A stretch of 41,334 nt of DNA from Dehalococcoidia bacterium (GTDB lineage Bacteria; Chloroflexota; Dehalococcoidia; Lucifugimonadales; UBA3495): the NCBI GenBank assembly GCA_022823105.1, contig JAJDXU010000005.1:1-41334 (forward strand), given 5' to 3'. A model generated the notes under the pieces. That model did not search any database and had not been told where the DNA came from. It saw nothing but the letters and a program-made list of their open reading frames with translations. This document shows, in pieces, positions 7,361-34,568 of the stretch. The translations under genes were made by a program, and so were the position numbers. Each line of letters opens with the position of its first letter. Position 1 is the stretch's first letter.

Positions 7361-7555
7361 TCATTCGACAGGTTCCACGACGACCAGGTGCTGGACCTTT
7401 TTCACCATGCCCATGATGGTCGGGCTGTCATGATGCACGACAGAATGGTTGAGCCGCTTCAGTCCGAGGGACTGGACGATGCGGCGCTGGTACGACGGCC
7501 GGCCGATGCAGCTTTTCTTCCAGGTGATTTTGATCTGTGCCATTTCGGTACTCAT
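7361..7555 (-). CDS. rpmD: 50S ribosomal protein L30
   Basis: 64-aa ORF. The ATG at 7555 overlaps the rpsE stop (ATGA). An alternative start at 7543 would give MAQIKITWKKSCIG..., which looks more like a typical L30 N-terminus. Confidence 0.9.
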   Translation of the reverse strand: MSTEMAQIKITWKKSCIGRPSYQRRIVQSLGLKRLNHSVVHHDSPTIMGMVKKVQHLVVVEPVE

Positions 7556-8439
7556 TCACCGCTCGGGGCGGGTGGGTCGGCATCGGGTTCGGGCGCCGCA
7601 TCCGCCGGTGGTTCAGCCTGATCCACGGCTGGCGGGGCCTCGTCAACGGCCGGCGCGGCCTCGGCCGACGCCTCAACGGCCGGTGCGTCCTCTGCGACGG
7701 ATTCCGCTTGCGCCGCGGGCTCGCTTGCCGGTGACTCGCTCGCCGGTGGCTCGTTTTCGGCGGTGGCGGCGCTTTCCTCCGACGGAGCAGCCGCCGGGGT
7801 CGCGGGAACCGCGGCCGCCTCAGGCGTTTCGGCTGCCACGGCGCCGTTGGTCTCGGGCCGGATGAGCCCCAGGCGGTTGGCGCGCTCGGTTTCGGGATCC
7901 CTGAGCAGGCTCAGGGCTTCCAGCGTGGCCTGCACGATGTTGATGGGGTTCCTGGAGCCCAGGGACTTGCCAACCACGTCCTGCACGCCCCCCAACTCAA
8001 GCATGGCGCGCATCGCGCCGGCCGCGATCACGCCGGTTCCCAGCGGCGCGGGCTTGATGATAACGATGGACGCGCCCTTTCGAACGGAGATCTCGTGAGG
8101 GATGGTGCTGCCCTTGATCGGGATGGTGATGGTGCTCCTTCGCGCCACCGCGGTTCCCTTGCGCACGGCGTCCGGGATGGCCAGGGCCTTTCCCATGCCG
8201 GCGCCAACCCGTCCCTGGCCGTCGCCCACGACCACCAGAGCGTTGAACCGGAGCCTGCGCCCGCCCTTGACGACCTTGGCGATGCGGCGGGTATGCACGA
8301 CGCGCTCGTTAAAGCCGCCGCTGTCGTCTTCACGTTGTCGCTGGTCGCGATCGCGACCACGGCCGCCGCGTCCGCGACGTTCACCGCCACCACGCTCGCC
8401 GCCACCGCGTTCACCTCTGCGGGTTGCTGGGGATACCAT
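7552..8439 (-). CDS. rpsE: 30S ribosomal protein S5 with RGG-rich N-terminus and a long Ala/Pro/Glu-rich C-terminal tail
   Basis: 295 aa. The core has RVVHTRRIAKVVKGGRRLRFNALVVVGDGQGRVGAGMGKA and a tail of about 100 aa, ...TPEAAAVPATPAAAPSEESAATAENEPPASESPASEPAAQ... Confidence 0.94.
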   Translation of the reverse strand: MVSPATRRGERGGGERGGGERRGRGGRGRDRDQRQREDDSGGFNERVVHTRRIAKVVKGGRRLRFNALVVVGDGQGRVGAGMGKALAIPDAVRKGTAVARRSTITIPIKGSTIPHEISVRKGASIVIIKPAPLGTGVIAAGAMRAMLELGGVQDVVGKSLGSRNPINIVQATLEALSLLRDPETERANRLGLIRPETNGAVAAETPEAAAVPATPAAAPSEESAATAENEPPASESPASEPAAQAESVAEDAPAVEASAEAAPAVDEAPPAVDQAEPPADAAPEPDADPPAPSGE

Positions 8440-8798
8440 CAGAACTTAAGCCCTCCTTCCCGGGCCGCGTCGGCCAGCGCTTTCACGCGTCCGTGGAACC
8501 GGTATCCGCCGCGGTCGAAGACCACTGCAGAAACACCGGCGGCAATCGCGCGTTCCGCCACCAGCTTGCCCACCGCTTCGGATGCGGCGGTCTTGGGCGT
8601 GGCGTTCGACGCGTCCAGCTCGCTGCTGGATGCCTGGGCCAGAGTGTGTCCTCGCCCGTCGTCTATCACCTGAGCATAGATTCCTTTCAGGCTACGGAAA
8701 ACGCACAAGCGGGGACGCTCTGCCGTTCCAATTACTTTGTTCCTTACCCGGCGGTGCCTCACGACACGCAGCTTCCGGGCATCCTTGTCTTTTGGCAT
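8439..8798 (-). CDS. rplR: 50S ribosomal protein L18
   Basis: 119 aa with [20 protein letters not shown] and [28 protein letters not shown]. Confidence 0.95.
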
Positions 8799-9927: not shown

Positions 9928-10233
9928 TCACAGGCTCGCTTTCCGGACTCCCGGCAGGAGGCCATCCAGGGCCATTTCGCGGAACGATATGCGGGACAGG
10001 CCGAAGTGGCGGATGTACCCGCGAGGCCGGCCGGTTGCGCCGTCCCGATTGCGGATGCGGTTAGGATTGGCGTCGGGGGGCAAAAGGGCCAGTTTCTGCC
10101 GCGCCTCGAACCGTTCCCGCAAGGGCCTGGACATGTCGCGCGCCTCGGCGAGCAGTTCGGCCCGCTGCTGAGCGTACCTGGCGACGGTGCGCTTGCGTCG
10201 TTCGTTCTTCGCTATGGCTGACTTTTTGGCCAA
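9928..10233 (-). CDS. rpsN: 30S ribosomal protein S14 (long form without a Cys cluster)
   Basis: 101 aa, MAKKSAIAKNERRKRTVARY...GLSRISFREMALDGLLPGVRKAS. Confidence 0.94.
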   Translation of the reverse strand: MAKKSAIAKNERRKRTVARYAQQRAELLAEARDMSRPLRERFEARQKLALLPPDANPNRIRNRDGATGRPRGYIRHFGLSRISFREMALDGLLPGVRKASL

Positions 10234-10324
10234 GGTGGGCTCTCCAGTGTTGTGGTCGATTGCACGGACTCTCCGGTTCGTACGACGAACCCGGATCGTG
10301 CAGCGAATCTGTGGTGTGCCGGGC

Positions 10325-10975
10325 TTACTGCCGGATAAACGGCATACCGAAATGCTCCAGCAAGCGCGTCGCCTCGGCGTCGTTGGTGGCGGTGGTGGTT
10401 ATGGTAACCTGCAGGCCGCGCAGCCGGTCGATGCTGTTGTAATCGATCTCCGGAAACACGATCTGCTCGCGCAATCCCAGGGAGAAATTGCCGCGGCCGT
10501 CGAACCCCCGCCGCGAGATGCCGCGGAAGTCCCTGATGCGGGGCAGGGCGGTGATAATCAGGCGTTCCAGAAAGTAGTACATGCGGTCGCCCCGCAGGGT
10601 AACGGCGGTACCGATGGGGTTCCCCTGGCGCACCTTGAAGCCGGCGATCGAGCGGCGCGCGCGCGTGATGATCGGCTTCTGGCCCGAGATGGTGGTCAGA
10701 TCGCGGACGGCGCTCTCCATCGCGCGGCCGTTGGTCAGCGCCTCGCCCAGGCCAATGTTCAGGTTGATCTTGCTGAGCCTTGGCACCTGCATCGGACTGG
10801 AGTATCCGAATTCCGAAACCATCGCCGGCACGATTTCATCCCGGAACCGGATTTTGAAAGTTGGAGGGGGGAGCGCAGCGCCGTTGGAGCCATTGCTTTC
10901 GGCCGCTTCCTGCCGTCGCCGTCGGCCGCCACCCTGCTGGTTGGCCGTTTGCTGTTCAGTCGTCATGGTGATCAC
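10325..10975 (-). CDS. rplE: 50S ribosomal protein L5 (N-terminally extended)
   Basis: 216 aa. The core has [37 protein letters not shown], preceded by a Q/G/R-rich extension of about 35 aa. Confidence 0.93.
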
Positions 10976-19483: not shown

Positions 19484-19954
19484 CTAACGGCGATAGTGCA
19501 CGAATGCGCGGTTGGCCTCGGCCATTCGGTGCAGTTCGTCCTTGCGGCGCACCGCCGACCCTTCGCCGCGGGCTGCGTCCATGAACTCGTTGGCCAGGCC
19601 GCGCGCCATTCGCATGCCGTTGCGCCCGCGCGCGCCGCGGATGATCCAGCGCATGGCCAGCGCCTCGCTGCGGGTAGTTCTGAGCTCCACCGGCACCTGG
19701 TAGGTGGCGCCGCCGACACGCCGGGGACGAACCTCGACCAGGGGGGTGGCGTTTCTCATGGCGCTGGAGAACACGACCATCGGATCCTGGCTCGTGTCCT
19801 GGCGCACCAGCTCCAGGGCGTCATAAACGACGCGCTGGGCCGTGGATTTCTTGCCCTTGATCATGACCCGATTGATGAACTTCGCGAGTTCCACGTTGTT
19901 GTATCGAGGGTCAGGCCTGATGACGCGGGGTTCCGCGCGGCGTCTTCGCGACAT
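19484..19954 (-). CDS. rpsG: 30S ribosomal protein S7
   Basis: 156 aa starting MSRRRRAEPRVIRPDPRYNN and ending MAEANRAFVHYR. Confidence 0.96.
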   Translation of the reverse strand: MSRRRRAEPRVIRPDPRYNNVELAKFINRVMIKGKKSTAQRVVYDALELVRQDTSQDPMVVFSSAMRNATPLVEVRPRRVGGATYQVPVELRTTRSEALAMRWIIRGARGRNGMRMARGLANEFMDAARGEGSAVRRKDELHRMAEANRAFVHYRR

Positions 19955-20034
19955 GTTCTCTTCCGCCTTCGGTGTACATTAAGCCACCCCCCAGCGCGGG
20001 GGGTGACGGAACGGTTTTGTTTCTGGCGCCTGCT

Positions 20035-20445
20035 CTATCCCTTGCGGGTTCCGTATTTGCTGCGCCCCTGGCGGCGCCCGCTTACGCCTTCAGTGTCCAG
20101 GTTGCTGCGCACCACGTGGTAGCGCACTCCCGGCAGGTCCTTCACTCGCCCGCCGCGAATAAGCACCACCGAGTGCTCCTGCAGGTTGTGGCCCTCGCCG
20201 CCGATGTAGGCGGTAACCTCAACACCGTTGGTCAGCCGCACCCGGCATATCTTGCGCAACGCCGAGTTTGGCTTCTTGGGCGTCATTGTCCGCACCTGGA
20301 TGCAGACTCCGCGCCGCTGCGGACAGCCTGGGCCCCACTTGGTCCGGTTGCGCAGCGAGTTTTGCACCCAGTGGAGGGCAGGAGCCTTGGTGCCTTTGCG
20401 CACGGGCTTGCGACCCTTGCGTACCAGTTGATTCACAGTAGGCAT
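20035..20445 (-). CDS. rpsL: 30S ribosomal protein S12
   Basis: 136 aa with [13 protein letters not shown] and [11 protein letters not shown]. An internal insertion of about 13 aa ([13 protein letters not shown]) precedes the conserved RRGVC. Confidence 0.96.
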
Positions 20446-20789: not shown

Positions 20790-22307
20790 ATGTGGACCGG
20801 CGACGATTTACAGAGGCTGGTCAAGAGGGAATTGAGCGATTATCGACTCCTGGTAGTTTCCAACCGACAGCCATACGTTTTTGATATTGACGACGCGGGA
20901 AATCTCCGCGGTCAGATGCCCCCGGGAGGGCTCACCGCCGCAATCGACCCTTTAATGCGGGCGTGCGGCGGCACCTGGATCGCCCAGAGCAGCAGCGACG
21001 CCGACCGGGCCGCCATGGACGAGAATGGGCGCATCCCCGTTCCGTTTGATTCTCCTGCATACCGGATGCGCTTGCTCAATCTCAGCGAGGAAGAGAACAA
21101 CGGTTTCTACTACGGCTTCTCCAACGAAGGACTCTGGCCGCTGTGCCACATCGCCTACACCGAGCCGCTGTTCGACTCCGCGCACTACGGGTTCTATCAG
21201 TCGGTGAATCGGCGTTTCGCGGACCTGGTGCTCGACGAAATCGGCGACGACCCTGCCATCGTGCTGATTCAGGACTACCACCTGGCCCTGCTGCCCCGTT
21301 ACATCCGGGAAATCAACCAGGACGCGATCATCGGACAGTTCTGGCATATACCCTGGCCGAACCCCGACATCCTGAGGATCTGCCCGTGGCAGGAAGAAAT
21401 CCTCGACGGGATGCTGGGCAATGACCTGCTGGGGTTCCACCTGTCCGGCGACTGCCAGAACTTCATCAACTGTGTGGACGCCAACCTGGATGCCCAGGTG
21501 GACCCCGACTACGGTTTGGTGGACTACCGGAACGAGACCACCCTGGTGCGCCCCTTTCCCATCAGCATCGATTTCGACAGCCTGGACGCCGAGGCCAGGA
21601 CCGCCGAGGTTGAGGCCGAAATGGCTCGCCTGTCCCAGGAACTCGGGTTGAACCGCGGCCGCATCCTGGGTTTGGGAATCGATCGCCAGGACTACACCAA
21701 GGGCATCCCCCACCGGCTGCGCGCGGTAGAAAGGCTCCTGGAGAAGTGGCCGGAGTACCGGGGCCGGCTGGTATTCCTGCAGGCGGGCGCCACCAGCCGG
21801 ACCAATATCGACTCGTACATGCAGCTGACCATCGATATTGAGTCCATAGTCAACCGCATCAACGAACGGTTCGGATACGACGGTTGGCAGCCGGTGCTCT
21901 ACTGGCCGACCTCCCTGCCGTCCGCCACCTTTTCGGCCCTGCGACGGCTGGCCGGTTTCTGCGCCGAGAGCAGCCTGCATGACGGAATGAACCTGGTGGC
22001 CAAGGAATACGTGGCGTCGCGGGTGGACGAGGATGGCGTGCTGATCCTGAGCGCGTTCGCCGGCGCGGCGCAGGAACTCACCGGGTCCCTGATTATCAAC
22101 CCCTACGCTACCGAGCAGTTCGCCGACGCCATCCACCAGGCGCTGAACATGGGTGATCTGGAACGGCGGATGAGAATGCGACAGATGCGCAACACGGTCC
22201 AGGAGAACAACATCTACAAGTGGGCCGGGCGCATCATGATGCACCTGATGCAGGCCAGCACGCCCGACCACTCCCGGCTCACGGACCCCGTCGCGTCCAC
22301 GGCATGA
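20790..22307 (+). CDS. otsA: GT20-family alpha,alpha-trehalose-phosphate synthase (OtsA-like)
   Basis: 505 aa with [20 protein letters not shown] and [21 protein letters not shown] precedes the ATG, and a trehalose-phosphatase-like gene follows. A related GT20 specificity such as glucosylglycerol-phosphate synthase cannot be excluded. Confidence 0.8.
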
Positions 22308-22344
22308 TTTCAAGGCAACAGGCGCCCGGCGGCTATTCCGGGAG

Positions 22345-23148
22345 ATGCGCGTGACCGACCCCAACCGACCGGCCGACTTTCCAGGCTGGTCGGCTTTTTT
22401 TGGTGCCGGCGCGGGCGAATCGGGGATTCTCCTGCTGCTCGATTTCGACGGCACTCTCTCTGAGATCGTCGAGAATCCCGACGCGGCGGAGTTGCGCCCA
22501 GGCAACGCTCAAACGCTCGATAAATTGAGTCGCAAGCCCCGGCTCACCGTGGGGATCGTCAGCGGGCGTTCACTCCAGGACGTGGCTGATCGCATCGCGC
22601 TTTCCAACCTCATCTACGCCGGCAATCACGGCATGGAAATCAAGGGGCCCGGCATCCGGTATCTTCATCCCGAAGTCGCGGCTGCCGTCCCTGGTTTGCA
22701 GGAGATCAGGTCCAGGGTGAGCACGGCCCTCGCCGGCATACCCGGAGTGCAGGTGGAGGACAAGACACTGACACTGACCGTGCATTACCGGCGGGCTCCG
22801 GCCAGGTACCATGAGGAGGTTGAATCCATAGTCAGGTCGGTTGCGCATCCCGAAACGTCAACGGATCAATACAGGATCACGTACGCCAAGGCCGCCATCG
22901 AAGTGAGGCCCGCGGTGGACTGGCACAAGGGCAGGGCGCTGGAATTCATCAGGTCGCGGCTCGCCGCCCGAGCGTACACGATCTACATCGGCGACGACCG
23001 GACGGATGAGGACGCTTTCGAGGCGGCCCAGGCGGCGGGTGGCTGCGGAATTTTCGTGGGTCCCGCCGACGCCCCCAGCTGCGCCCGGTACCGGTTGGAG
23101 TCACCGGCGGCGGTGAGCGCCGTCCTGGCCGACCTGTCTTTGCGTTAG
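22345..23148 (+). CDS. otsB: HAD-IIB trehalose-phosphatase (OtsB-like)
   Basis: 267 aa with LLLLDFDGTLSEIV (DxDGT motif I), VSGRS, GNHGMEI and YIGDDRTDEDAF. The exact start is uncertain (ATG 22345 or GTG 22351). Confidence 0.8.
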   Translation: MRVTDPNRPADFPGWSAFFGAGAGESGILLLLDFDGTLSEIVENPDAAELRPGNAQTLDKLSRKPRLTVGIVSGRSLQDVADRIALSNLIYAGNHGMEIKGPGIRYLHPEVAAAVPGLQEIRSRVSTALAGIPGVQVEDKTLTLTVHYRRAPARYHEEVESIVRSVAHPETSTDQYRITYAKAAIEVRPAVDWHKGRALEFIRSRLAARAYTIYIGDDRTDEDAFEAAQAAGGCGIFVGPADAPSCARYRLESPAAVSAVLADLSLR

Positions 23149-23308
23149 TCTCCGGAACGCCGGCCGGCTTTGTTGGGGGTCGTCCTCGCTCACTGGGCGA
23201 ACTGCCGGTTGATGTGGGGCAATCACGGCAAGGTTGTTGTGCTATTATTGGCGGCGTCCGGCTTGGAGCCATCGGGCTACTTTCTCGAACCGGCGCAGTT
23301 TTCACCCA

Positions 23309-24019
23309 ATGATCGACGCTATTTTCTTTGATTTTTACAACACTCTGGTACGTTTCTGGCCCCCTCTGCCCCAGATTCAGCACGCCGCCTGCCAGAACCT
23401 GGGCATCCGAGTACCTCCTGATCAGCTGGCGCGCGGGTACGCCATAGCGGACCTCTACTTCAATGAAGAGAACCATCGCCTGCCCCTCGGTGACCGCGAC
23501 GCCGCCGACCGCGACGCGTTCTTCGCCCGCTACGAGCAGATTATCCTCGAGGAAGCGGGAGTTGCCGTTTCGCTGCGCATGGCCAAGCAGATCTGGGACA
23601 TGGCGATATCCGTTCCCAAAGAGCTGGTCGAGTTCGAGGAAACGCGGCCCGTTCTGGCGGAGCTCAAATCGCGCGGGTACCGGCTGGCCGTCCTGACCAA
23701 TCTGCGTCGGGACATGGAACAACTCACCAGGCAGTTGGGAATCCATGAGTACCTGGAGTTTTCCATCACCGGGCGCGAGGTCAGCGAGAAGCCGGCAACG
23801 GCGATATTCGAAGCCGGCCTGAAACGCATGGCGGTGCGGCCTGATCGTGCCATGCACGTAGGAGACCAGCCGCGTTCCGACGTCGAGGGAGCGCGGGAGG
23901 CCGGGCTCTATCCGGTCCTGATCGACCGGGGAGGATTCCACGCCGACGTGGTTGGCTGCGACCATATCGACAGCCTGGAAGGGCTCTATCCGTTGCTGGA
24001 CCGGCTCGCCACCTGCTGA
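23309..24019 (+). CDS. HAD-superfamily hydrolase, subfamily IA, with a DxYxT motif I
   Basis: Track ORF trimmed to ATG 23309. The product starts MIDAIFFDFYNTLV, with Tyr at the second-Asp position as in haloacid-dehalogenase-type HADs. It also has LAVLTN, EKP and HVGDQPRSDV. Substrate unknown. Confidence 0.75.
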   Translation: MIDAIFFDFYNTLVRFWPPLPQIQHAACQNLGIRVPPDQLARGYAIADLYFNEENHRLPLGDRDAADRDAFFARYEQIILEEAGVAVSLRMAKQIWDMAISVPKELVEFEETRPVLAELKSRGYRLAVLTNLRRDMEQLTRQLGIHEYLEFSITGREVSEKPATAIFEAGLKRMAVRPDRAMHVGDQPRSDVEGAREAGLYPVLIDRGGFHADVVGCDHIDSLEGLYPLLDRLATC

Positions 24020-24057
24020 CCACGGACCAAACATCACTCTGCAATCGGGGAGGCATC

Positions 24058-24717
24058 ATGATGACCCAGACGCCCGCTCACAACCATCCCGGAGACGCCA
24101 ACCCGGTACACGTGATCGTTTGGTACGACTACGTTTGACCCTGGTGCTACGTCGGCCTGGAACGCGTCGACAAACTGGCGGAAGAATATCCCATCACCGT
24201 GGAAGGGCGGGCATACCTGTTGCGCCCCGACACTCCCGCCGAGGGCCGGGTGCGCGAACCCCGGCCGGGCGAAACGGACGATGAACTGTCCGACCCATTG
24301 CGGACCCACGCCCGTGAGGCAAACATCGTAATGCGCCCGCCGCGCTATACGCCCAACAGCCTGAATTCCCTGCAGGCCACTGAGTACGCCCAGGAGCACG
24401 GCAAGTTCCTGGAATATCATCACGCCGCGTACGAAGCGTATTGGGACCGCAGGGAGAACCTGGGCGACACGTCGGTGCTCGCCGACATCGGAAACAGCGT
24501 GGGCCTGGACGGCGCGGAACTGAAGGAGCGCGTCGAGTCCGGGCACTACGCCCAGCGCGTGGTTGACCAGTATCACGAGGCCCTGGGTTACGGGATCCGC
24601 GGAATTCCCACCTTCGTGTTGGACAATCTCCTGTTCACCGGCGCCCAACCCTACGAGGTGTTCCAGAGGGTGATGGACAAGGCCCTGGAGAACCGGGAGT
24701 CCGGCGAGTCCCAGTAA
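24058..24717 (+). CDS. DsbA/FrnE-like thiol:disulfide oxidoreductase with in-frame TGA at the first active-site Cys (candidate selenoprotein, U-P-W-C)
   Basis: ATG 24058 is preceded by GGGGAGG (24047..24053). The frame reads MMTQTPAHNHPGDANPVHVIVWYDYV-TGA(24136..24138)-PWCYVGLERVDKL..., continuous with track ORF 24199..24717 (...GIRGIPTFVLDNLLFTGAQPYEVF...). The gene terminates with TAA. Confidence 0.7.
24151..24171 (+). promoter_or_regulatory. candidate bacterial SECIS hairpin
   Basis: GTCGGC (24151..24156) pairs with GTCGAC (24166..24171): 6 bp including one G-U. The loop is CUGGAACGC. The stem begins 12 nt after the TGA, and the loop GG lies about 21 nt downstream of it. Confidence 0.45.
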
Positions 24718-24739
24718 GCCGGGAGATTGGACCGAACCG

Positions 24740-24775
24740 GGCGGCGGATTGAACCCAATCCGCCGCCTCTTGCTG
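24740..24775 (+). terminator. rho-independent terminator after the DsbA-like gene
   Basis: Perfect 11-bp stem GGCGGCGGATT (24740..24750) / AATCCGCCGCC (24757..24767) with a 6-nt loop, followed by TCTTGCTGTG. The U tract is weak. Confidence 0.6.
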
Positions 24776-24892
24776 TGCTAACGCCCTTCGCCTGACCCCG
24801 GCCCGGGCCGGAGCGATCCGTGTCGGTGCTGCGCATCCGCATGGCGGGTGAGACCGCACGCCAGGACCATTCGATTATCCACACGCACCGAT

Positions 24893-25071
24893 GTAGTCCG
24901 CTCATGGTGCGGAACGTCCGCCCACGCCAGGAGCCTGCCGAATATTCGCGTCGGGTAGCGTAGTCCGCTCATGGTGCGGAACGTCCGCCCACGGCGGGAG
25001 CCTGCCGGATATTCGCGTCGGGTAGCGTAGTCCGCTCATGGTGCGGAACGTCCGCCCACGGCGGGAGCCTG
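24893..25071. repeat. 67-nt tandem repeat, 2.7 copies
   Basis: Copies occupy 24893..24959, 24960..25026 and 25027..25071 (partial). Copies 1 and 2 differ at 3 positions. Each unit contains TCCGC-N7-GCGGA-ACG-TCCGC. Copy 1 has the 10-bp palindrome CGAATATTCG (24939..24948). Confidence 0.9.
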
Positions 25072-25254
25072 TCGAACCACGAGCGGACGGTCCGCTTACC
25101 AATATCCAGGACGGTATTTGCTGCTCGGCTGATCAGACAACCGCATGACCCTGGGCCGCACGCCCATTTCGTTGCCCGCCGGGTTCACCTTGTGCTAGAC
25201 TTGCGACGGCAGAATCCCTTTGTAATAGTTTTCACAATCTGACGGACCCGACCG

Positions 25255-25734
25255 ATGGATGCCGATACCCGGTCCCTGATCAGCGACGCAGTCAATAATC
25301 AGCCGCAATCCACCGTGACCGTACTGTCCTCGTTGCTGGCCATCGAGGACGCAATCGGATACATCCCGAAAGAAGCGGTGGAAGCCGTTGCGCTGCGCAT
25401 GGACGCGACCATCAACGACGTCTGGGCGGTCGCCACCTTCTACCCCAACTTCCGGTTCGACCCGCCCACGGAACACCGGATCGAGGTCTGCTGGGGGCCA
25501 TCCTGCCACGTCATGGGGGCCGACCGCATAATCACCGCGGCCCAGGATGCGCTCAACCTCACCGACGAAGGGGACACGCCGGATGGCAGGGCGACGTTGC
25601 GCTACAACACTTGCCTGGGCGCCTGCGCGCACGCTCCGGTCATGGCAATCGACCACCACCTGGCCGGTCGCATCACCCCCGAATCCGCCCAACAGAAAAT
25701 AGCGGACGCTCTGCATTCCGCCGCCTCTCACTGA
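25255..25734 (+). CDS. NuoE/FdsG-like [2Fe-2S] thioredoxin-like ferredoxin subunit
   Basis: 159 aa with Cys pattern CWGPSCHVMGA...CLGACAHAPVMAID, typical of the complex I 24-kDa subunit family. Confidence 0.88.
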   Translation: MDADTRSLISDAVNNQPQSTVTVLSSLLAIEDAIGYIPKEAVEAVALRMDATINDVWAVATFYPNFRFDPPTEHRIEVCWGPSCHVMGADRIITAAQDALNLTDEGDTPDGRATLRYNTCLGACAHAPVMAIDHHLAGRITPESAQQKIADALHSAASH

Positions 25735-25747
25735 TCCGGCGGTTCCC

Positions 25748-27505
25748 TTGGCTACACCGACTGCTTCCAATTTCGAGCCCATCCTGGCTGAGGCGCAGCG
25801 CCGATGGCAGGACCTTACCAACGGCGACCGCCCGTGGATCCGCATAGGCACCGGTTTGGCCGGCGAGGCCGCCGGCGGGTTTGAGGTCGTCGCAGCCACC
25901 AAGTCGGTGCTGGAAGAACGCCAGATACAGGCGACCGTGTCGGAAGTGGGCACCCTGGGCCTTTGCTTCGCGGAACCCCTGCTGGATGTGCAGATGCCGG
26001 GCGGGGTGCGGGTGTTTTACCAGAACGTCACCCCGCAGATTGCCCAGCGCATTGTCAGCCAGCACGTATCCGGCGGCGAACCCATCCCGGAGCACGCGAT
26101 TGGATACCTGGGCGACCGCGCCCAGGCTCCCGACGGCATCCCTCACCTGGACGACCATCCCATGCGCGCGCTGGAACAGCGCATCGCCCTCCGCAACGCC
26201 GGAAACATCGACCCGTCGGACCTGTACCAGTACATCGCCAACGGCGGGTACTCCGCGCTGAACAAGGCCCTGTCGGAAATGTCACCCGACGAGGCGCGGC
26301 AGGAGGTGGTCACCTCCGGTTTGAGAGGACGCGGAGGTGCCGCGTTCCCGGCCGGCGTGAAGTGGGGGTTCCTGGCCGGCAATCCCGACCCCAACAAATA
26401 CATCCTGTGCAACTGCGAAGAGGGCGACCCCGGCGCTTTCAACGACCGCGGGATCCTCGAAAGCGACCCCGCAACCGTTGTCGAGGGCATCACCATCGCC
26501 GGCTACGCATGCAACGCCAACCGGGGTTATATCTTCATCCGCCATGGACACAACCAGCCCATCGACCGGACGCGCGCGGTCATCGAGCAGGCCTACGAAC
26601 TGGGACTGTTGGGCGAGAATATCCTGGGCAGCGGTTTCTCCTTCGACGTCGAGGTCGCCCTCACCGGCGACTCCTACGTGTCCGGCGAGGAAACCGCCCT
26701 GATGGAGGCCATCGAGGGCAAACGTTCCATGCCTCGCTACCGGCCCCCGTTCCCGGCGCAGGTGGGCGTATTCGGAAAGCCCTCCAACATCAACAACGTC
26801 AAGACCCTGGCCTACGTTCCCGAGATCGTCGCCCGGGGAGGCGAGTGGTTCGCCAGCATCGGAACGTCGGCAGACCCCGACCGGCGCATCAACGGCAGCA
26901 GCGGCACGGCGATCCTCTGCCTGTCCGGCGACATCACCTACCCGGGCCTGATCGAGGTACCGCTGGGCATGACGCTCAGGCAGGTCCTGTTCGACATGGC
27001 CGGCGGCGTTCCCAATGGCAAACGCATGAAGCTGCTGCAGACCGGCGGCCCCCTGGGCGGAGTGCTCTCAGCCAGCGATACGAACCTGGACCTGGTGCTT
27101 GATTTCGACGTGTTTCGCGCGGCGGGCGCCATCCTCGGGTCCGGCGGGATAATCGTGTGCGACGAGGACACGTGCGCCGTTGACCTCACCCGCAACCTGA
27201 TCGCTTTTTGCCAGTACGAGTCCTGCGGCAAGTGCTTCCCCTGTCGCATGGGGATGAGCCACCTCCTCGAGGTGCTGGAGCGCATCAGCAACCTGGAAGG
27301 CACCGAGGAAGACCTGGCGTTGATGCGCAACATAGGCGAAAACATGCAGGCCGGGTCCCTCTGCGGCCACGGGCAACTGGGATTCAACCCGGTGTCGTCG
27401 GCCCTGCGCTATTTCGGCGACGAGTTTGAGGCGCACATCAGGGACAAACGGCACACCGGCGACTGCCCGGAGCAGGTCTATTCGCCGAGACTCACGCGTC
27501 GCTAG
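25748..27505 (+). CDS. NuoF/FdsB-like NAD(H)-binding FMN/[4Fe-4S] subunit with an extra N-terminal domain
   Basis: 585 aa with a TTG start. It has GLRGRGGAAFPAGVKWGF (FMN/NADH site) and ESCGKCFPCRMG...SLCGHG (N3-type cluster). About 140 additional N-terminal residues are present, as in soluble FdsB/HoxF-type proteins. Confidence 0.88.
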   Translation: MATPTASNFEPILAEAQRRWQDLTNGDRPWIRIGTGLAGEAAGGFEVVAATKSVLEERQIQATVSEVGTLGLCFAEPLLDVQMPGGVRVFYQNVTPQIAQRIVSQHVSGGEPIPEHAIGYLGDRAQAPDGIPHLDDHPMRALEQRIALRNAGNIDPSDLYQYIANGGYSALNKALSEMSPDEARQEVVTSGLRGRGGAAFPAGVKWGFLAGNPDPNKYILCNCEEGDPGAFNDRGILESDPATVVEGITIAGYACNANRGYIFIRHGHNQPIDRTRAVIEQAYELGLLGENILGSGFSFDVEVALTGDSYVSGEETALMEAIEGKRSMPRYRPPFPAQVGVFGKPSNINNVKTLAYVPEIVARGGEWFASIGTSADPDRRINGSSGTAILCLSGDITYPGLIEVPLGMTLRQVLFDMAGGVPNGKRMKLLQTGGPLGGVLSASDTNLDLVLDFDVFRAAGAILGSGGIIVCDEDTCAVDLTRNLIAFCQYESCGKCFPCRMGMSHLLEVLERISNLEGTEEDLALMRNIGENMQAGSLCGHGQLGFNPVSSALRYFGDEFEAHIRDKRHTGDCPEQVYSPRLTRR

Positions 27506-27558: not shown

Positions 27559-30405
27559 ATGCCTGACGACATTACCATCTCGATAGACGGGGTGGAAATC
27601 AGGACGCAACCCGGGAAGATGGTCCTTGAAGCGGCCATCGATGCCGGGGTGTATGTCCCCTATCTCTGCTATCACTCGGGCATGAAACCGTACGCGGCAT
27701 GCCGCATGTGCGTGGTGGTCGCGGAAAATGAGCGGGGCCGTGTGCCGGGATTCCCGGCCGCCTGCACCCTGGCGGCCACCGACGGCATGACCGTCTGGAG
27801 CGAAACCCCCGACGTGAACGAACTGCGCCGCTCCGTCATGCAGATGCTCATCGCCGAGCACCCCAACGGCTGCCTGACCTGCCACCGGGTGGAAATCTGC
27901 GGGCCGTCCGATGTCTGCCTCCGGCACGTTTCCGTCAACGACCGTTGCGTCACGTGCCCCAAGAACGAGCGTTGCGAGTTCAAGGACACCGTCCGCTATC
28001 TGGGGATGGAACTGGAATCCCCCATGACCTACATGTACCGGGACATCCCGCTGGAGGTCAGCGACCCGTTCTACGACCGGGATTACAACCTCTGCATCAC
28101 CTGCGGACGTTGCGTCCGCGTCTGCGAAGAAGTGCGCGGCGACAGCGCGATCTGTTTCACCGAGCGGTCTGGCAAGGCGCTGGTGGGAACGTCATTCGGA
28201 ACCTCCCTGCTGGAATCCGGGTGCGAATTCTGCGGCGCGTGCCTGGACGTGTGTCCGGTGGGCGCGCTCACCGAACGGGAAAACAAGTGGGAGAAGGCCG
28301 CCACCGTGCAGCGAACCATCTGCACCCACTGCCCGGTGGGATGCCAGATGAACCTGGAAATCAACCAGCAGGGTCGGGTGATCCGGGCTATCCCGGAGTA
28401 CAATTCCCCGGCAAACCACGGGCAGGCCTGCTACAAGGGCAAGTTCGGCTTGAGCCACCTGACCAGTGGCGACCGGCTGCGCCGTCCGATGATCAGGCGC
28501 AACGGGATCCTTGAGCCGGCGACGTGGGACGAAGCGTTGGACCTCGTTACGGAACGGCTGCGACCGCACCAATCGGGAACCGGGTTCGGCCTGATCACGG
28601 CGGCGGACAGCACCAACGAGGAATTTTACCTGGCGCAGAAGTTCGCCCACATCGGGATGCAGACCCACAACCTGGACCACTCCGGCAACGTCCAGCCGGA
28701 CCTGACTCGTGGGCTCGAGGATGTGCTGGGATACCCGGGAGCCACCAATTCGATCTGGGAACTGAAGGACTCCGATTGCATCCTCGTTTTCAACACCAAC
28801 CTGACCGAGAGCCACAACGTTGTCGGCGTCCCCATCAAGCAGGCCGCAATGAGCGGCGTCCCGCTGATCGTGATCGACACACGCGAGGTTGAACTCACCC
28901 GTTACGCGCATCTGTGGCTCAGGCCAACCCCCGGCGCCGAGCTGCTGCTCATCGGGGCAATCCTGAAAACCGTGCTGGACGAAGGCTTGGTGGACGCCGA
29001 GTGGATGGCGGACAACGTGGACGACCACGACACTCTGCTCTACGAACTGGAGCGGATTGACGATGAAGCCATCGCGTCCACCGGCGTTCCGCGCGACGAC
29101 ATCGTGCAGGCTGCCCGCCTGTACGCCACTGCCGGCAACGCGGCCATCGTTTACGGCCTGGACAACGTGCCCGCCGCCGTCACCCGAGATTGCGTCGTCG
29201 CGCTGTGCGACCTGGCGCTTTTCACCGGCAACGTGGGGCAAGCTGGAGGCGGCCTGTTCCCCATGAGGCAGGGCGCCAACACGCAGGGAGCCACCGACAT
29301 CGGTTGCATACCCAACCGGCTGCCCGGCGGCGGCCCGCTGTTCGATGACAGCAACCGGGCCCGTGTCGAGGAGATCTGGGGAGCGCCGCTGCCCCCGCCG
29401 CGACACAGCATGGGCGTCGGAGAGATGCTGGACGCCGCCACGTCCGGCGATATAAAGTCCATGATCGTCGTCGGCGACAGCCCGAACTTCACCAACGGCC
29501 TGCTGGGCGACGGCCTCGCCGCGCTGGAGCGACTGGACTTCCTGGTCGTAATGGACACGTTCCTCACGCAGCCGGCTCAGATCGCGGACGTGGTGCTGCC
29601 CCGAGTGACCTTCGCGGAGAAGGACGGGACATTCACCAACATCGAAAGGCGCATCCAGCGAGTCCGGCCGGCGGTGTCGGTGCGGAACAACGACGCGAAA
29701 CCCGAGGGTTGGGTTTTCGAGCAGTTGGCCCGGCGGTTGGGCATAGATGGCATCAGCTACGACGATCCGGCAGCGTTGATGGACGAGATCGCCTCGGTAA
29801 CCCAGCACTACGGCGGCATCAGCTATGACCGGTTGGCCCGGGAATCTTCCCTGGTGATGCAGACCGGGGTCGAATCTCCACGGCCCACCCAGATCCTCTA
29901 CACCTCCCGCGAGGAACGCGGAATCCAGTGGCCGTGCCCGGCCTCCGACAGCCCGTCCTCGCCGGTCCTTTACGCCGACGGCTTCCCCAACGGCAAAGCC
30001 GAACCGGGCGCCCCGCGATTCCGGGTTATCGATTGGGAGACGGAGCCGGAATATCCCGCCCTGCTGGTACCCGGCCGGGTCCTGCTGCAGCAGGAACGCG
30101 ACACCACCATCGAGCACGGTGACCTCAACCGGATCGTCCGGGACGAAGAGGTGCAACTCAACCCTCAGGACGCGGCAGAGTGGGACCTGGCCGAAGGCGA
30201 TGCCGTCGTGGTCGTCACGTCCACCAGACGAATCACCGGCGCCGTCAGAGCGAGCGCGTCCGTTCCGCGCGGGGCAGTGGCCATCACCACGCTTTTCGGG
30301 GAACTGGCCGTCGAGTTGCAGATGTCCGAAGACGTGAACCCCATGGCGCGAGTGCCGGGGCTCCAGATTGAACCCTGCCGTGTGGAAAAGCTGGTGACGG
30401 CTTAG
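27559..30405 (+). CDS. NuoG/FdhA-like Fe-S plus molybdopterin-oxidoreductase-fold subunit lacking the Cys/Sec Mo ligand
   Basis: 948 aa. It has an N-terminal 2Fe-2S ferredoxin fold (CYHSG...CRMC), several CxxCxxC clusters (CITCGRCVRVC, CEFCGACLDVCP) and the MopB-domain cluster CTHCPVGC...CYKGKF. The expected active-site segment reads HNLDHSGNVQPDLTRGL, with no Cys and no TGA. Confidence 0.85.
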   Translation: MPDDITISIDGVEIRTQPGKMVLEAAIDAGVYVPYLCYHSGMKPYAACRMCVVVAENERGRVPGFPAACTLAATDGMTVWSETPDVNELRRSVMQMLIAEHPNGCLTCHRVEICGPSDVCLRHVSVNDRCVTCPKNERCEFKDTVRYLGMELESPMTYMYRDIPLEVSDPFYDRDYNLCITCGRCVRVCEEVRGDSAICFTERSGKALVGTSFGTSLLESGCEFCGACLDVCPVGALTERENKWEKAATVQRTICTHCPVGCQMNLEINQQGRVIRAIPEYNSPANHGQACYKGKFGLSHLTSGDRLRRPMIRRNGILEPATWDEALDLVTERLRPHQSGTGFGLITAADSTNEEFYLAQKFAHIGMQTHNLDHSGNVQPDLTRGLEDVLGYPGATNSIWELKDSDCILVFNTNLTESHNVVGVPIKQAAMSGVPLIVIDTREVELTRYAHLWLRPTPGAELLLIGAILKTVLDEGLVDAEWMADNVDDHDTLLYELERIDDEAIASTGVPRDDIVQAARLYATAGNAAIVYGLDNVPAAVTRDCVVALCDLALFTGNVGQAGGGLFPMRQGANTQGATDIGCIPNRLPGGGPLFDDSNRARVEEIWGAPLPPPRHSMGVGEMLDAATSGDIKSMIVVGDSPNFTNGLLGDGLAALERLDFLVVMDTFLTQPAQIADVVLPRVTFAEKDGTFTNIERRIQRVRPAVSVRNNDAKPEGWVFEQLARRLGIDGISYDDPAALMDEIASVTQHYGGISYDRLARESSLVMQTGVESPRPTQILYTSREERGIQWPCPASDSPSSPVLYADGFPNGKAEPGAPRFRVIDWETEPEYPALLVPGRVLLQQERDTTIEHGDLNRIVRDEEVQLNPQDAAEWDLAEGDAVVVVTSTRRITGAVRASASVPRGAVAITTLFGELAVELQMSEDVNPMARVPGLQIEPCRVEKLVTA

Positions 30406-31361: not shown

Positions 31362-33980
31362 ATGGTTACCACCAGCGCCCGGCTCACGCCCGTCCGGCGG
31401 CAGTACCTGACCATCAAGCACTCGTACCCGGACGCCATCCTCCTGTTCAGGATGGGCGACTTTTACTAGTGCTTCGACGACGATGCCAAAACGCTGTCCG
31501 AGGCCCTGGAGGTCGCGTTGACCTCGCGTTCCATGGGCAAGGACACCCGCATCCCGATGGCCGGCGTACCTGCGGTTTCGCTGGAAACCAACCTGTCCCG
31601 ACTGATCCGCCAGGGTTACAAGGTGGCCATTTGCGAGCAGCTCAGCGACCCGGCCCTGTCCAGGGGCCTCGTCGAACGTGGGGTGGTGCGCGTGGTGACG
31701 CCCGGAACGGTGCTGGAATCCGCGTTGCTCGACCAGGGGGCCAACAACTATCTCGCCGCCGTTTGCTCCGCCGATGACCGGGCGGGATTGGCCTACGTGG
31801 ACGTGACCACCGGGGAATTCTCAGTGGCGGAAATCCCGCTGGGCGAACTGCCACTGGAACTGGCGCGGCTGGAAGCGTCCGAAATCCTGATCCCGCCCGA
31901 CTTTGAGCTGCCCGCTCTGCCCGCCGCCGATGGGCCCGCGGCCGTTATCACGGCTCTCGACGCCTCCGCCTTCAACCCGGAGATCGCGCGCCGTTCCCTG
32001 CTGGACCACTACGGCGTGCTGTCGCTGGAGGCGTACGGGCTGGAGTCGCGCGGCGTGGAATCGATGCCCATGGCGGTGCGGGCCGCCGGCGCCATCGTTG
32101 ACTACCTCAATTATACCTGGCAGGGAGAGCGGCCGCGCCTCGCGCCGCCCCGCGTGTTGGAGAGCGACGCGTACATGACGCTGGATCCCCAGACCCGCCG
32201 CAACCTCGAGTTGTTCGAGGCCGGTCGCCGGGACTCCCGCGATTATTCCCTGCTGGCGGCGCTGGACGACACCAGAACCGCCATGGGCGCCCGCCTGCTG
32301 CGGAGATGGCTGGGTCGGCCGCTGCTGGACCTGGAGAGGCTGGAGCGCAGGCTTGATGCGGTGGACTTTTTCTACAACAACGCCTTCCGGCGTGACGACG
32401 CGACCGCCGCGCTGTCGGACGTTGCGGACCTGGAACGCATCCTGACGCGCATCCAGACCCAGAACGCTCCGCCCCGCGATCTGCTGGCGTTGCGGCAGAG
32501 CCTGCGGGCGGCCGAACGCCTGGAGCCCGCGTTGACCGGCGAAGGGGCGGACGGCATGGGCTGGCTGGCTGCTGGCCTGCGGCCGCTGCCGGAAGTGGCG
32601 AACCTGGTCGACGCTGCAATCGCGGACGAACCGTCAACCCAGCCCGGCGACGGAGGGGTCATCAGGGAAGGATTCTCCCCCGAACTCGACCGCATCCGCT
32701 CCATGTCGCGGGACGCCCGGGGATTCATCGCCAGCCTGGAGTCCCAGGAGCGCGAACGCACCGGCATCCGCAACCTCAAAGTGGGGTTCAACCAGGTGTT
32801 CGGTTACTACATCGAGGTCAGCCGCTCCAACCTGGAACTGGTGCCCGACGATTACCAGCGCCGGCAGACCCTGACCAACGGGGAACGTTACATCACGCCC
32901 GAACTGAAAGAATACGAGGGTCAGGTGCTGGACGCTCGGGAACGGCTGGAACAGCTCGAACGTACGCTGTACCGGCAAGTGTGCCAGCAGATCGCCGACC
33001 ATGCCGACGGCATTTCGAGGATGGCGGCGGCCATCGCCAGGGTCGATGTGTTTGCAGGGCTGGCCAATATCGCGGCGCGGCATGGATACGTGCGGCCCGA
33101 GTTGAGCGGCGGCAGCGCCATCAGCATCGTGGGGGGCCGCCATCCGGTGGTGGAACGCGTCCTCGGGGCCGGCGAATTCGTGCCCAACGACGCCGCGCTG
33201 GATGCCGATGATGCCCAGATCATGCTGATCACCGGGCCCAACATGGCGGGGAAATCCACCTATATCCGGCAGGTCGCCATCATCGTCCTGATGGCGCAGG
33301 TGGGCAGCTTTGTCCCCGCGACTTCGGCCTCCATCGGCCTGGTGGACCGGATTTTCACGCGGGTGGGGTTGCAGGACGACCTGGCCACCGGGCAATCCAC
33401 CTTCATGGTTGAAATGGTGGAAACCGCCGCCATCCTGAACCAGGCCACCTGGCGTTCGCTGGTCATCCTGGACGAGATCGGGCGCGGCACCAGCACCTAC
33501 GACGGATTGTCCATCGCCCGCGCCGTGGTTGAGCATCTGCACAACAACCCCAAAGTCAGCAGCAAGACCCTGTTCGCCACCCATTACCATGAACTGACCG
33601 ACCTGGCCGCGACGCTGCCGGGCGTGCGGAACTACCGGGTGGCGGTGTCGGAGGAGGATGGGCGCGTCGCATTCCTGCACCGAATCGTGCCCGGCGGAGC
33701 CGACCGGTCCTACGGCGTGCACGTGGCGATGCTGGCCGGCATGCCGACTTCGGTGGTGAACCGGGCGCAGGAATTGTTGACCGAGCTGGAGCGGGATAAA
33801 CCGGCCGGGCGGGCCCAGCGGCGTGGCAAAACCCCACCCCCTCAGCTCGCCCTCCCGCTTTTCGACCGGGACGAGGCGGAACTCGCCCGTGCCATCCTCG
33901 AGCTGGATATTGGAAACCTCACGCCGCTGGAGGCGATCAACAAGCTGTACGAGTTGCAGGAGCAGGCTCGCAAGACGTGA
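31362..33980 (+). pseudogene. mutS: DNA mismatch repair protein MutS interrupted by an in-frame TAG at codon 36
   Basis: ATG 31362 gives [38 protein letters not shown](31467..31469)-CFDDDAKTLSEALEVALTSRSMGKD..., in the same frame as the 820-aa track ORF 31518..33980 (Walker A GPNMAGKST). TAG terminates rpsD and rplV in this window. Confidence 0.85.
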
Positions 33981-34205: not shown

Positions 34206-34568
34206 ATGACTGATTCGGCGACGATCTATTGGTGGCCGCGTTGAAGTAGCTGTCGCAAAGTGCGGGAGTTGCTCGTGCAGAACGGACTGACGGTGACTGA
34301 ACGGGACTATTTCAAAGAACCGTTTACCGAGCGGGAGCTCAGCGATCTGGTCGCCGAAGTGGGAAAGCCCGGTGTGAGCGCCATGTTCGCGAGCCGGAGC
34401 CCATCGCTGAAGAAGATGGGCCTGACCGCCGCCGAACTATCCGATGAGCGCAAATTCTCTCTCATGCTGGAGGAACCCAGGCTGGTGCGCCGGCCGCTGG
34501 TGCGCCTGGGCGACCGGCTCCTGATCGGAGCCAGCGTCAAGGCCATCACCGAGGCCATTTCCGGGTAA
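34206..34568 (+). CDS. ArsC/Spx/YffB-family protein with in-frame TGA at the first Cys of CxxC (candidate selenoprotein, U-S-S-C)
   Basis: ATG 34206, with GGAG at 34194..34197. The frame reads MTDSATIYWWPR-TGA(34242..34244)-SSCRKVRELLVQNGLTVTERDYFKEPF..., continuous with track ORF 34260..34568 (...EPRLVRRPLV...). The gene terminates with TAA. Confidence 0.7.
34250..34280 (+). promoter_or_regulatory. candidate bacterial SECIS hairpin
   Basis: The lower stem pairs CUGU (34250..34253) with GCAG (34277..34280). The upper stem pairs GCAA (34255..34258) with UUGC (34269..34272). The apical loop AGUGCGGGAG (34259..34268) has GGG about 20-22 nt after the UGA. Confidence 0.4.

Follow-up and report, generated by a model that had tools for sequence, protein, structure and literature searches.

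On the forward strand of the window (the whole stretch of DNA that was analysed, 41,334 nucleotides in length), a DsbA/FrnE-like gene occupies positions 24058..24717 within the order otsA–otsB–HAD–[DsbA/FrnE-like gene]–nuoE/nuoF/molybdopterin oxidoreductase. Direct reading and translation gave one 219-codon frame from ATG 24058 to TAA 24715..24717, the sole internal stop of which is TGA 24136..24138 (Table 1). Around this stop, at codon 27, the peptide reads ...VHVIVWYDYV-[TGA]-PWCYVGLERVDKL, and the active-site block as translated, with selenocysteine (Sec, U) at the TGA, is WYDYV-U-PWCYVG. An alternative ATG lies at 24061, with the Shine–Dalgarno-like GGGGAGG 7 nt upstream of it. Past the stop codon, a G+C-rich inverted repeat represents a possible terminator; a terminator scan did not flag this repeat, owing to its weak T run.

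The mechanical list of open reading frames (ORFs) held 24199..24717 (+, 172 aa, GTG) as its sole entry for the gene. With U replaced by C, the full frame matched the Pfam DSBA domain (PF01323) over residues 19–205 (E 3.6e-33, 115 bits, cut-off 25.6). Because this match begins at residue 19 and spans the TGA, the 172-aa ORF contains only the C-terminal part of the domain; it is an annotation artefact and no separate gene. The first-pass annotation had held that the ORF track shows only the C-terminal part of the gene, that an upstream start exists at ATG 24058 with GGGGAGG 4 nt away, and that the TGA stands at the first Cys of a CPWC motif. The extents of the ORF and of the DSBA match agree with the first of these claims, direct reading confirmed the second, and the alignment of Deinococcus radiodurans FrnE (PDB 5CNW) and of Cys-form homologues upheld the third.

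Table 1 Features of the DsbA/FrnE-like gene and of a second candidate selenoprotein gene in the window.
Feature	Position	Strand	Remarks
Shine–Dalgarno-like GGGGAGG	24047..24053	+	4 nt before ATG 24058; direct read
Full CDS, predicted DsbA/FrnE-like selenoprotein	24058..24717	+	219 codons including Sec27; stop TAA
Predicted Sec-UGA codon (U27)	24136..24138	+	First, nucleophilic residue of the redox motif U-P-W-C
TGC, resolving Cys30 of U-P-W-C	24145..24147	+	Cys without exception in orthologues and Cys-form homologues
SECIS-like hairpin	24151..24171	+	Stem 24151..24156 with 24166..24171; conserved core 24152..24156 with 24166..24170
Truncated ORF	24199..24717	+	172 aa, GTG start, without active site; gene callers' version
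Inverted repeat, G+C-rich	24740..24767	+	11 bp, GGCGGCGGATT / AATCCGCCGCC, then TCTTGCTG; 22 nt past the stop
ArsC/Spx-family gene, predicted selenoprotein	34206..34568	+	ATG 34206 to TAA 34568; TGA 34242..34244

Among 5.8 billion predicted proteins, a search found 380 relatives, the best 120 of which share 57–94% identity with the query. These best 120 are 127–186 aa long and span about the last 57–83% of the query; when aligned, all 120 begin past the TGA, NCBI and ENA records included. Their called starts vary between species (alignment positions 31–48). Starts that uniformly lie past the TGA, at differing positions, are the signature of an in-frame stop that runs through the whole family.

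We then turned to genomic DNA, scanning one genome per GTDB species. Among 599 pattern matches, 530 were confirmed as relatives, and the best 80 were used; these all stem from Dehalococcoidia / Chloroflexota / SAR202 metagenome-assembled genomes (MAGs) and share 57–93% amino acid identity with the gene. The tblastn matches in the 80 genomes extend over query residues 1–219, straight through the stop. In all 80 of these loci (the best 80 of 530, one per GTDB species) the aligned codon is TGA, giving 81 out of 81 in the codon alignment once the gene itself is added, and the surrounding sequence reads WYDY[IV]-TGA-PWCY[VI]GLERV. Neither TGC nor TGT was found at this codon among the orthologues examined (80 loci). 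A more distant relative on a Logan contig (L082, 46% identity) carries TGA at the same codon. The gene neighbourhood is also conserved, with the HAD gene upstream on the same strand in 79 loci and a nuoE-like gene downstream in 58 of the 80.

Conservation extends to both sides of the stop. Across the 12 codons 5′ of the TGA, the peptide V-x-V-x-V-W-Y-D-Y-[IV] is kept, with a Val codon entropy of 1.4–1.9 bit. A peptide that is retained while its synonymous sites vary freely indicates that this stretch is translated in the same frame and selected as protein. Full-length homologues came from an exhaustive HMMER search, for which the query was the sequence downstream of the TGA. Cys-form homologues at 33–42% identity (P0121, P0130, P0143 and others) read SDY[IV]-C-PWCY[VI]G, and the CPWC of D. 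radiodurans FrnE aligns on U-PWC. Such Sec/Cys homologue pairs are a criterion used in the selenoprotein field. The orthologue comparison proposed by the first-pass annotation was thus borne out, with TGA in all 80 loci and in the 46% relative, a conserved peptide on both sides and Cys in distant homologues. In at least 81 Dehalococcoidia species the predicted Sec form is fixed, without reversion to Cys.

Downstream of the UGA, the first-pass annotation had pointed out a 6-bp hairpin at 24151..24171 with a 9-nt loop, 12 nt after the TGA, and this reading holds. The hairpin starts 12 nt past the TGA (12–13 nt for the stem), and its arms, GUCGGC (24151..24156) and GUCGAC (24166..24171), form five Watson–Crick pairs and one G-U pair around the loop CUGGAACGC. 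In the ViennaRNA fold, C24157 and G24164 form a seventh pair and C24165 is bulged, whereby the loop shrinks to the 6-nt UGGAAC. In the apical loop, G24159 is near-invariant and G24160 invariant, 21–22 nt after the UGA. By itself the hairpin has a folding energy of −8.0 kcal/mol (z −1.08), and a 60-nt stretch that includes it was no more stable than shuffled sequence (z +0.63). Since single-sequence folding does not go beyond chance, the argument for the hairpin rests on comparative data.

We determined codon entropies from the codon alignment of the 81 genes, among those sequences that carry the majority amino acid. The four codons of the stem arms, Val+5 GTC (75/76, 0.10 bit), Gly+6 GGC (79/81, 0.17 bit), Val+10 GTC (78/81, 0.23 bit) and Asp+11 GAC (73/74, 0.10 bit), have the four lowest entropies in a set of about 100 conserved degenerate codons of the gene. 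The 93 others average 1.30 bit, with a minimum of 0.33 bit. Codons of the loop vary (Glu+8 0.99 bit, Arg+9 1.99 bit). Synonymous suppression is thus limited to the stem codons, where it is the strongest in the gene.

Pairing was analysed for the 7-pair structure in a 48-column alignment (A2) of 69 distinct sequences. In these, 97.5% of the cells form standard pairs, compared with 23–41% when the 3′ arm is slid, and RNAalifold independently recovered the same hairpin, 24151..24171. One locus (L078) shows a compensatory change from C-G to G-C at pair 18-34, brought about by GTC to GTG and GAC to CAC at the cost of an Asp-to-His substitution. Wobble changes were seen from G-C to G-U at pair 19-33 in three species and from C-G to U-G at pair 22-29 in two. 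Ten of the 69 distinct sequences lack the outermost pair, which leaves a conserved core of five to six pairs. Covariation is thin, with one compensatory event and marginal shuffle controls (8/500, covariation score), because the hairpin is almost invariant; the nucleotide conservation at this site is in part due to the conserved peptide VGLERVD.

Two larger structures were considered and rejected. L078 and L082 fold well into an extended hairpin of 9 bp and a 3-nt loop, yet the alignment as a whole does not support it: of the 69 sequences, 44 leave pair 22-30 open and 20 leave pair 24-28 open, and shuffle controls were not exceeded. A lower stem of CCCUGG with a downstream CUGG is not conserved, as the Leu codon concerned varies freely.

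Covariance models gave no match, neither over the whole window with Rfam at gathering thresholds nor over 24000..24300 with Rfam at E ≤ 10. Rfam models evidently miss bacterial SECIS elements, as these are too short and too diverse for them. The SECIS-model check suggested by the first-pass annotation therefore has a mixed outcome: no Rfam family recognizes the element, even at E ≤ 10, while the hairpin is conserved in all orthologues (97.5% of cells paired), is recovered by RNAalifold and coincides with the suppression in the stem codons. Judged from the aligned sequences, the hairpin is conserved as a structure and under RNA-level constraint, and is a putative SECIS.

The first-pass annotation had also noted a second gene about 10 kb away with the same pattern. 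This claim proved correct for an ArsC-family gene with TGA 34242..34244, which came up when every in-frame TGA of the window was scanned. Its peptide, MTDSATIYWWPR-U-SSC-RKVRELL..., contains the motif WWPR-U-SSC-RKV and matches Pfam ArsC (PF03960; E 1.7e-16, 60.7 bits against a cut-off of 24) and the NCBIfam model arsC_related. A metagenome scan for the gene returned one relative (L081, 89% identity); the TGA is kept in this relative and in a syntenic contig (L083). Directly after the UGA, a hairpin at 34245..34273 comprises 7+5 bp (−14.5 kcal/mol, z −4.55). Stem changes in L081 and L083 are wobble-compatible only, and by reading of the sequences, L083 has four 5′-arm substitutions, each of which exchanges G-U for G-C or the reverse. 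The codon-usage screen of the in-frame TGAs in the window yielded no third convincing candidate; the top-scoring other TGA, at 8441, serves rplR as its ordinary stop.

ArsC-like selenoproteins have been listed before (PMC1088965, PMC1794560). The gene here resembles these in its ArsC fold (PF03960), in the placement of Sec at the N-terminal redox Cys and in the hairpin that immediately follows the UGA, whereas the motif here is U-S-S-C and the Sargasso family is listed as UxxS. The NCBIfam model NF041106 (ArsC family (seleno)protein) scored 27.2 bits on the second gene, below its cut-off of 85, so that the gene belongs to a different ArsC/Spx-like subfamily.

Neither selA, selB, selD nor a gene for tRNA-Sec was found in the window or the 80 loci, 565 kb in all, which were searched with ARAGORN (no tRNA) and by tblastn with an E. 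coli SelD sequence (no match). This outcome carries no information on the genome as a whole. The lineage is covered by BSepDB, for which selenoprotein genes were sought only in species with at least two of SelA, SelB and SelD (PMC13326102). Its table of the organisms richest in selenoprotein genes includes two Dehalococcoidia bacteria, 10f4566d-ab44-49ae-b774-fc9f760c6436 with 46 such genes and UBA1141 with 49 (PMC13326102). The former isolate is one of our 80 loci (L076, OY761986.2), and its orthologue, at 61% identity, has the TGA. At 46 selenoprotein genes per 2.4 Mb, two in 41 kb are not unusual.

Taken together, we consider 24058..24717 to be a genuine Sec-encoding gene with a U27-P-W-C30 active site, at a probability of roughly 93%. 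The basis of this reading is a conserved in-frame UGA, a Sec/Cys homologue pair, a peptide conserved at the level of translation to either side of the stop and RNA-level constraint on the hairpin. None of the outcomes that the first-pass annotation had named as refuting it was observed. The UGA would be recoded co-translationally, with the hairpin acting as a bacterial SECIS that recruits SelB·GTP·Sec-tRNA(Sec) to the ribosome in competition with RF2. The base that follows the UGA is C, and UGA followed by C is a weak termination context. By analogy with the family, the U27 selenolate would attack a substrate disulfide and then form a selenenylsulfide with Cys30, so that the enzyme may cycle between selenolate/thiol and selenenylsulfide through exchange with substrate disulfides or thiols.

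A single sequence, taken alone, would be compatible with a nonsense mutation or a sequencing or assembly error in a Cys-type dsbA/frnE gene, that is, a pseudogene, and mutS in the same window has an apparently genuine in-frame TAG (31467..31469). The probability of such a defect here is negligible: the TGA recurs in 80 of 80 independent genomes and one more distant contig, no orthologue has TGC or TGT, and the peptide is under purifying selection to either side of the codon, so that the comparative sequence data refute it. It is exceedingly unlikely that the 172-aa ORF from GTG 24199 is instead a real gene for a DsbA fragment without an active site, the upstream 26 codons being untranslated or a leader peptide. 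Gene callers read it in this way, and the best 120 database proteins all start past the TGA; however, the called starts differ between species (alignment positions 31–48), the stretch between the TGA and these starts is conserved as a peptide, and the WYDY[IV] block and PWC complete a DSBA domain that begins at residue 19. A thioredoxin fold deprived of β1 and CxxC would, moreover, be non-functional. Reassignment of TGA to Trp or Gly as a plain sense codon, as in Mycoplasma or Gracilibacteria, has nothing more in its favour than the in-frame TGA itself, and its probability is vanishingly small. As the first-pass annotation had stated, TGA terminates genes elsewhere in the window: rplQ, secY, rpsE, rplR and rplD, and further otsA, the HAD hydrolase, the nuoE-like gene, mutS, a second HAD and DUF192, making at least 11 other Pfam-supported genes; in rplQ, secY, rpsE, rplR, rplD, otsA, HAD, the nuoE-like gene and mutS, it falls where the Pfam domains predict the end. 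The 81 orthologues themselves stop at TGA (20), TAG (36) or TAA (25), and the aligned residue in homologues is Cys, neither Trp nor Gly. Stop-codon usage thus refutes a reassigned code, and the different reading of the internal TGA must come from its context.

What doubt remains about a Sec-encoding gene is mostly a matter of non-Sec decoding of the UGA. Special tRNAs that decode Sec-type UGA codons as Cys are known from a few bacteria. Here, a Cys-charged tRNA with a UCA anticodon, or near-cognate read-through, could place Cys or another residue at the UGA in a hairpin-dependent manner, in which case the product would be a CPWC enzyme with its synthesis regulated at the UGA. The lack of Sec machinery in the window and the 80 loci (565 kb) is in keeping with such decoding. 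Against it, the lineage is on record as Sec-utilizing and its selenoproteomes as very large (PMC13326102), exchange between Sec and Cys at this position is classical for a known selenoprotein family, and two different redox genes within 41 kb have the same pattern, so that we regard it as very unlikely. Likewise very unlikely is the broader supposition that either a dedicated UCA-anticodon tRNA decodes the UGA as Cys or else a Dehalococcoidia-specific recognition rule of SelB applies. A lineage-specific SelB rule is suggested by the near-invariant 5–6 bp hairpin together with the U directly 5′ of the UGA, which is invariant and present in both selenoprotein genes of the window. If either were true, the clade would be a model for a non-canonical recoding signal.

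With Sec as the preferred reading, the gene is an unannotated member of a selenoprotein family known since 2005. It is the correct annotation of the gene that is absent from databases, not the family, and the chief value of the finding lies in annotation: all of the best 120 public proteins are fragments of 127–186 aa without an active site. No NCBIfam model reaches its cut-off for the DsbA-like family of 24058..24717. The best model, NF041057 (Rcas_1661 thioredoxin-like (seleno)lipoprotein), scored 57.6 bits against a cut-off of 190 and covered the C-terminal half only. That no NCBIfam model captures the family explains the truncated NCBI annotations. With truncated public proteins and no model to rescue them, redox-enzyme inventories of the SAR202/Dehalococcoidia undercount both selenoproteins and functional DsbA/FrnE-type oxidoreductases. 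A fixed Sec form in an abundant marine lineage fits published accounts that place the selenoproteomes of some Dehalococcoidia among the largest in bacteria. The gene opens no new mechanistic question.

The predicted product is a cytoplasmic FrnE/DsbA-like thioredoxin-fold oxidoreductase of 219 residues. Its N terminus, MMTQTPAHNHPGDANPVHV, on direct reading has neither a hydrophobic stretch nor a signal peptide, which suggests a cytoplasmic protein like FrnE rather than a periplasmic DsbA. Assignment to the classical periplasmic DsbA of the E. coli type was rejected, given the lack of a signal peptide and a motif of UPWC instead of CPHC; structures of periplasmic DsbA match the C-terminal half only, at E of about 1e-4. 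The best solved structures are those of D. radiodurans FrnE (5CNW/5CP1, E 1e-14) and Streptomyces SCO1869 (3GL5, E 7e-13), which match over residues 11–201. FrnE and SCO1869 share with the protein here the active-site block W-x-D-x-x-[C/U]-PWCY[IV]G and the absence of a signal peptide. FrnE differs in having Cys instead of Sec and in its low identity, and the crystallized construct, at 260 residues, is about 40 residues longer at the C terminus. This C-terminal tail of FrnE holds an extra Cys pair. COG2761 is named for FrnE.

As for the recoding signal, the SECIS of the E. coli fdhF type, recognized by SelB, is likewise a stem-loop about a dozen nucleotides past the UGA, within the coding sequence and with an apical G. 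By contrast, the conserved stem here is far shorter (5–6 pairs), has no Rfam SECIS match and leaves the UGA outside any conserved lower stem.

The closest known system is the DsbA-like selenoprotein, and the first-pass annotation was right to recall UxxC forms of DsbA-like proteins as a recognized selenoprotein class (PMC1088965). Zhang, Fomenko and Gladyshev introduced the DsbA-like UxxC proteins (COG2761) in 2005 as a new family of selenoproteins in Sargasso Sea data, with nine sequences and a predicted SECIS (PMC1088965). The proteins turned up in sequenced genomes of Deltaproteobacteria and Clostridia in 2006 (PMC1794560) and were counted in 41 organisms in 2016 (PMC5029168); a 2026 review names them 'DsbA-like protein form 1, PF01323, UxxC' (PMC13188914). 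The gene here shares with form 1 the PF01323 domain, a UxxC motif whose Sec replaces the first Cys, widespread Cys-form homologues and a SECIS-like stem-loop directly 3′ of the UGA with a G in the apical loop; the family is, in addition, of marine metagenomic origin. It thus displays every testable defining feature of DsbA-like selenoprotein form 1. Compared by description with the published members (AACY01178397, NIP15863.1), nothing essential differs, and what the gene here adds to form 1 is a predicted Sec form fixed in at least 81 Dehalococcoidia species and a near-invariant short hairpin.

Besides the FrnE/DsbA-family candidate selenoprotein gene dsbA(U), the window carries a second candidate, of the ArsC/Spx family, in which the in-frame TGA falls in a U-S-S-C motif. 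This TGA is retained both in a metagenomic relative with 89% identity and in the corresponding gene of L083, a contig syntenic with the window. Directly 3' of the UGA, positions 34245..34273 form a strong hairpin of 7+5 bp (z -4.55). The called ORF covers only a fragment of 97-102 aa.

Such misannotation of the Sec genes is systematic. Among the public predictions for the DsbA-like protein, all of the best 120 of 380 relatives are truncated, with starts downstream of the TGA. The L083 genes at 10001..10519 and 19897..20190, which include the ArsC-like prediction, are likewise post-TGA fragments, and the truncated predictions include both NCBI and ENA records.

Analysing the sequence around the stop, we found that the base directly 5' of the Sec-UGA is U without exception, in the window (as the last base of codons 24133..24135 and 34239..34241) and in all 80 DsbA-like orthologous loci. 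The preceding codon in the DsbA-like gene is ATT wherever it encodes Ile (64/64) and GTT wherever it encodes Val (17/17), although at other positions in this gene Ile is mostly written ATC and Val mostly GTC or GTG. In the ArsC-like gene, the rare codon CGT occupies this position in three of three sequences. The constant U may reflect a recoding-context rule.

A representative-protein search with the post-TGA part of the DsbA-like protein also found proteins of 600-1163 aa (P0124, P0125, P0132, P0136 and others), in which its C-terminal half (residues ~67-185) was matched 3-5 times over.

The order otsA-otsB-HAD-dsbA(U)-nuoE/nuoF-like (20790..27505 in the window) is conserved in the flanks of the orthologous loci. 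The HAD gene lies upstream on the same strand in 79 of 80 loci, as does otsB in 67, and a nuoE-like gene lies downstream in 58.

Further genes in the window with in-frame TGA or TAG codons or redox functions
Feature	Coordinates	Remarks
ArsC/Spx-family gene, candidate selenoprotein	34206..34568	motif U-S-S-C, TGA 34242..34244
mutS	31362..33980	in-frame TAG at 31467..31469, frame then open up to 33980
Molybdopterin oxidoreductase, 948 aa, with NuoG-type Fe-S domains	27559..30405	downstream of nuoE/nuoF-like genes

In L083, the codon aligned exactly with the mutS TAG encodes Glu, as part of the mismatch-recognition motif GDFY-E; the stop could be a read error, or mutS could be a pseudogene or a nonsense (mutator) allele. 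Elsewhere, the rpsE ORF (7552..8439, minus strand) encodes 295 aa; its S5 domains stop at residue 184, followed by a C-terminal tail of ~110 residues.

The molybdopterin oxidoreductase looks like the alpha subunit of an NAD-linked formate dehydrogenase. Because it has a 2-residue gap opposite Sec140 of E. coli FdhF, it may lack the catalytic Sec/Cys.
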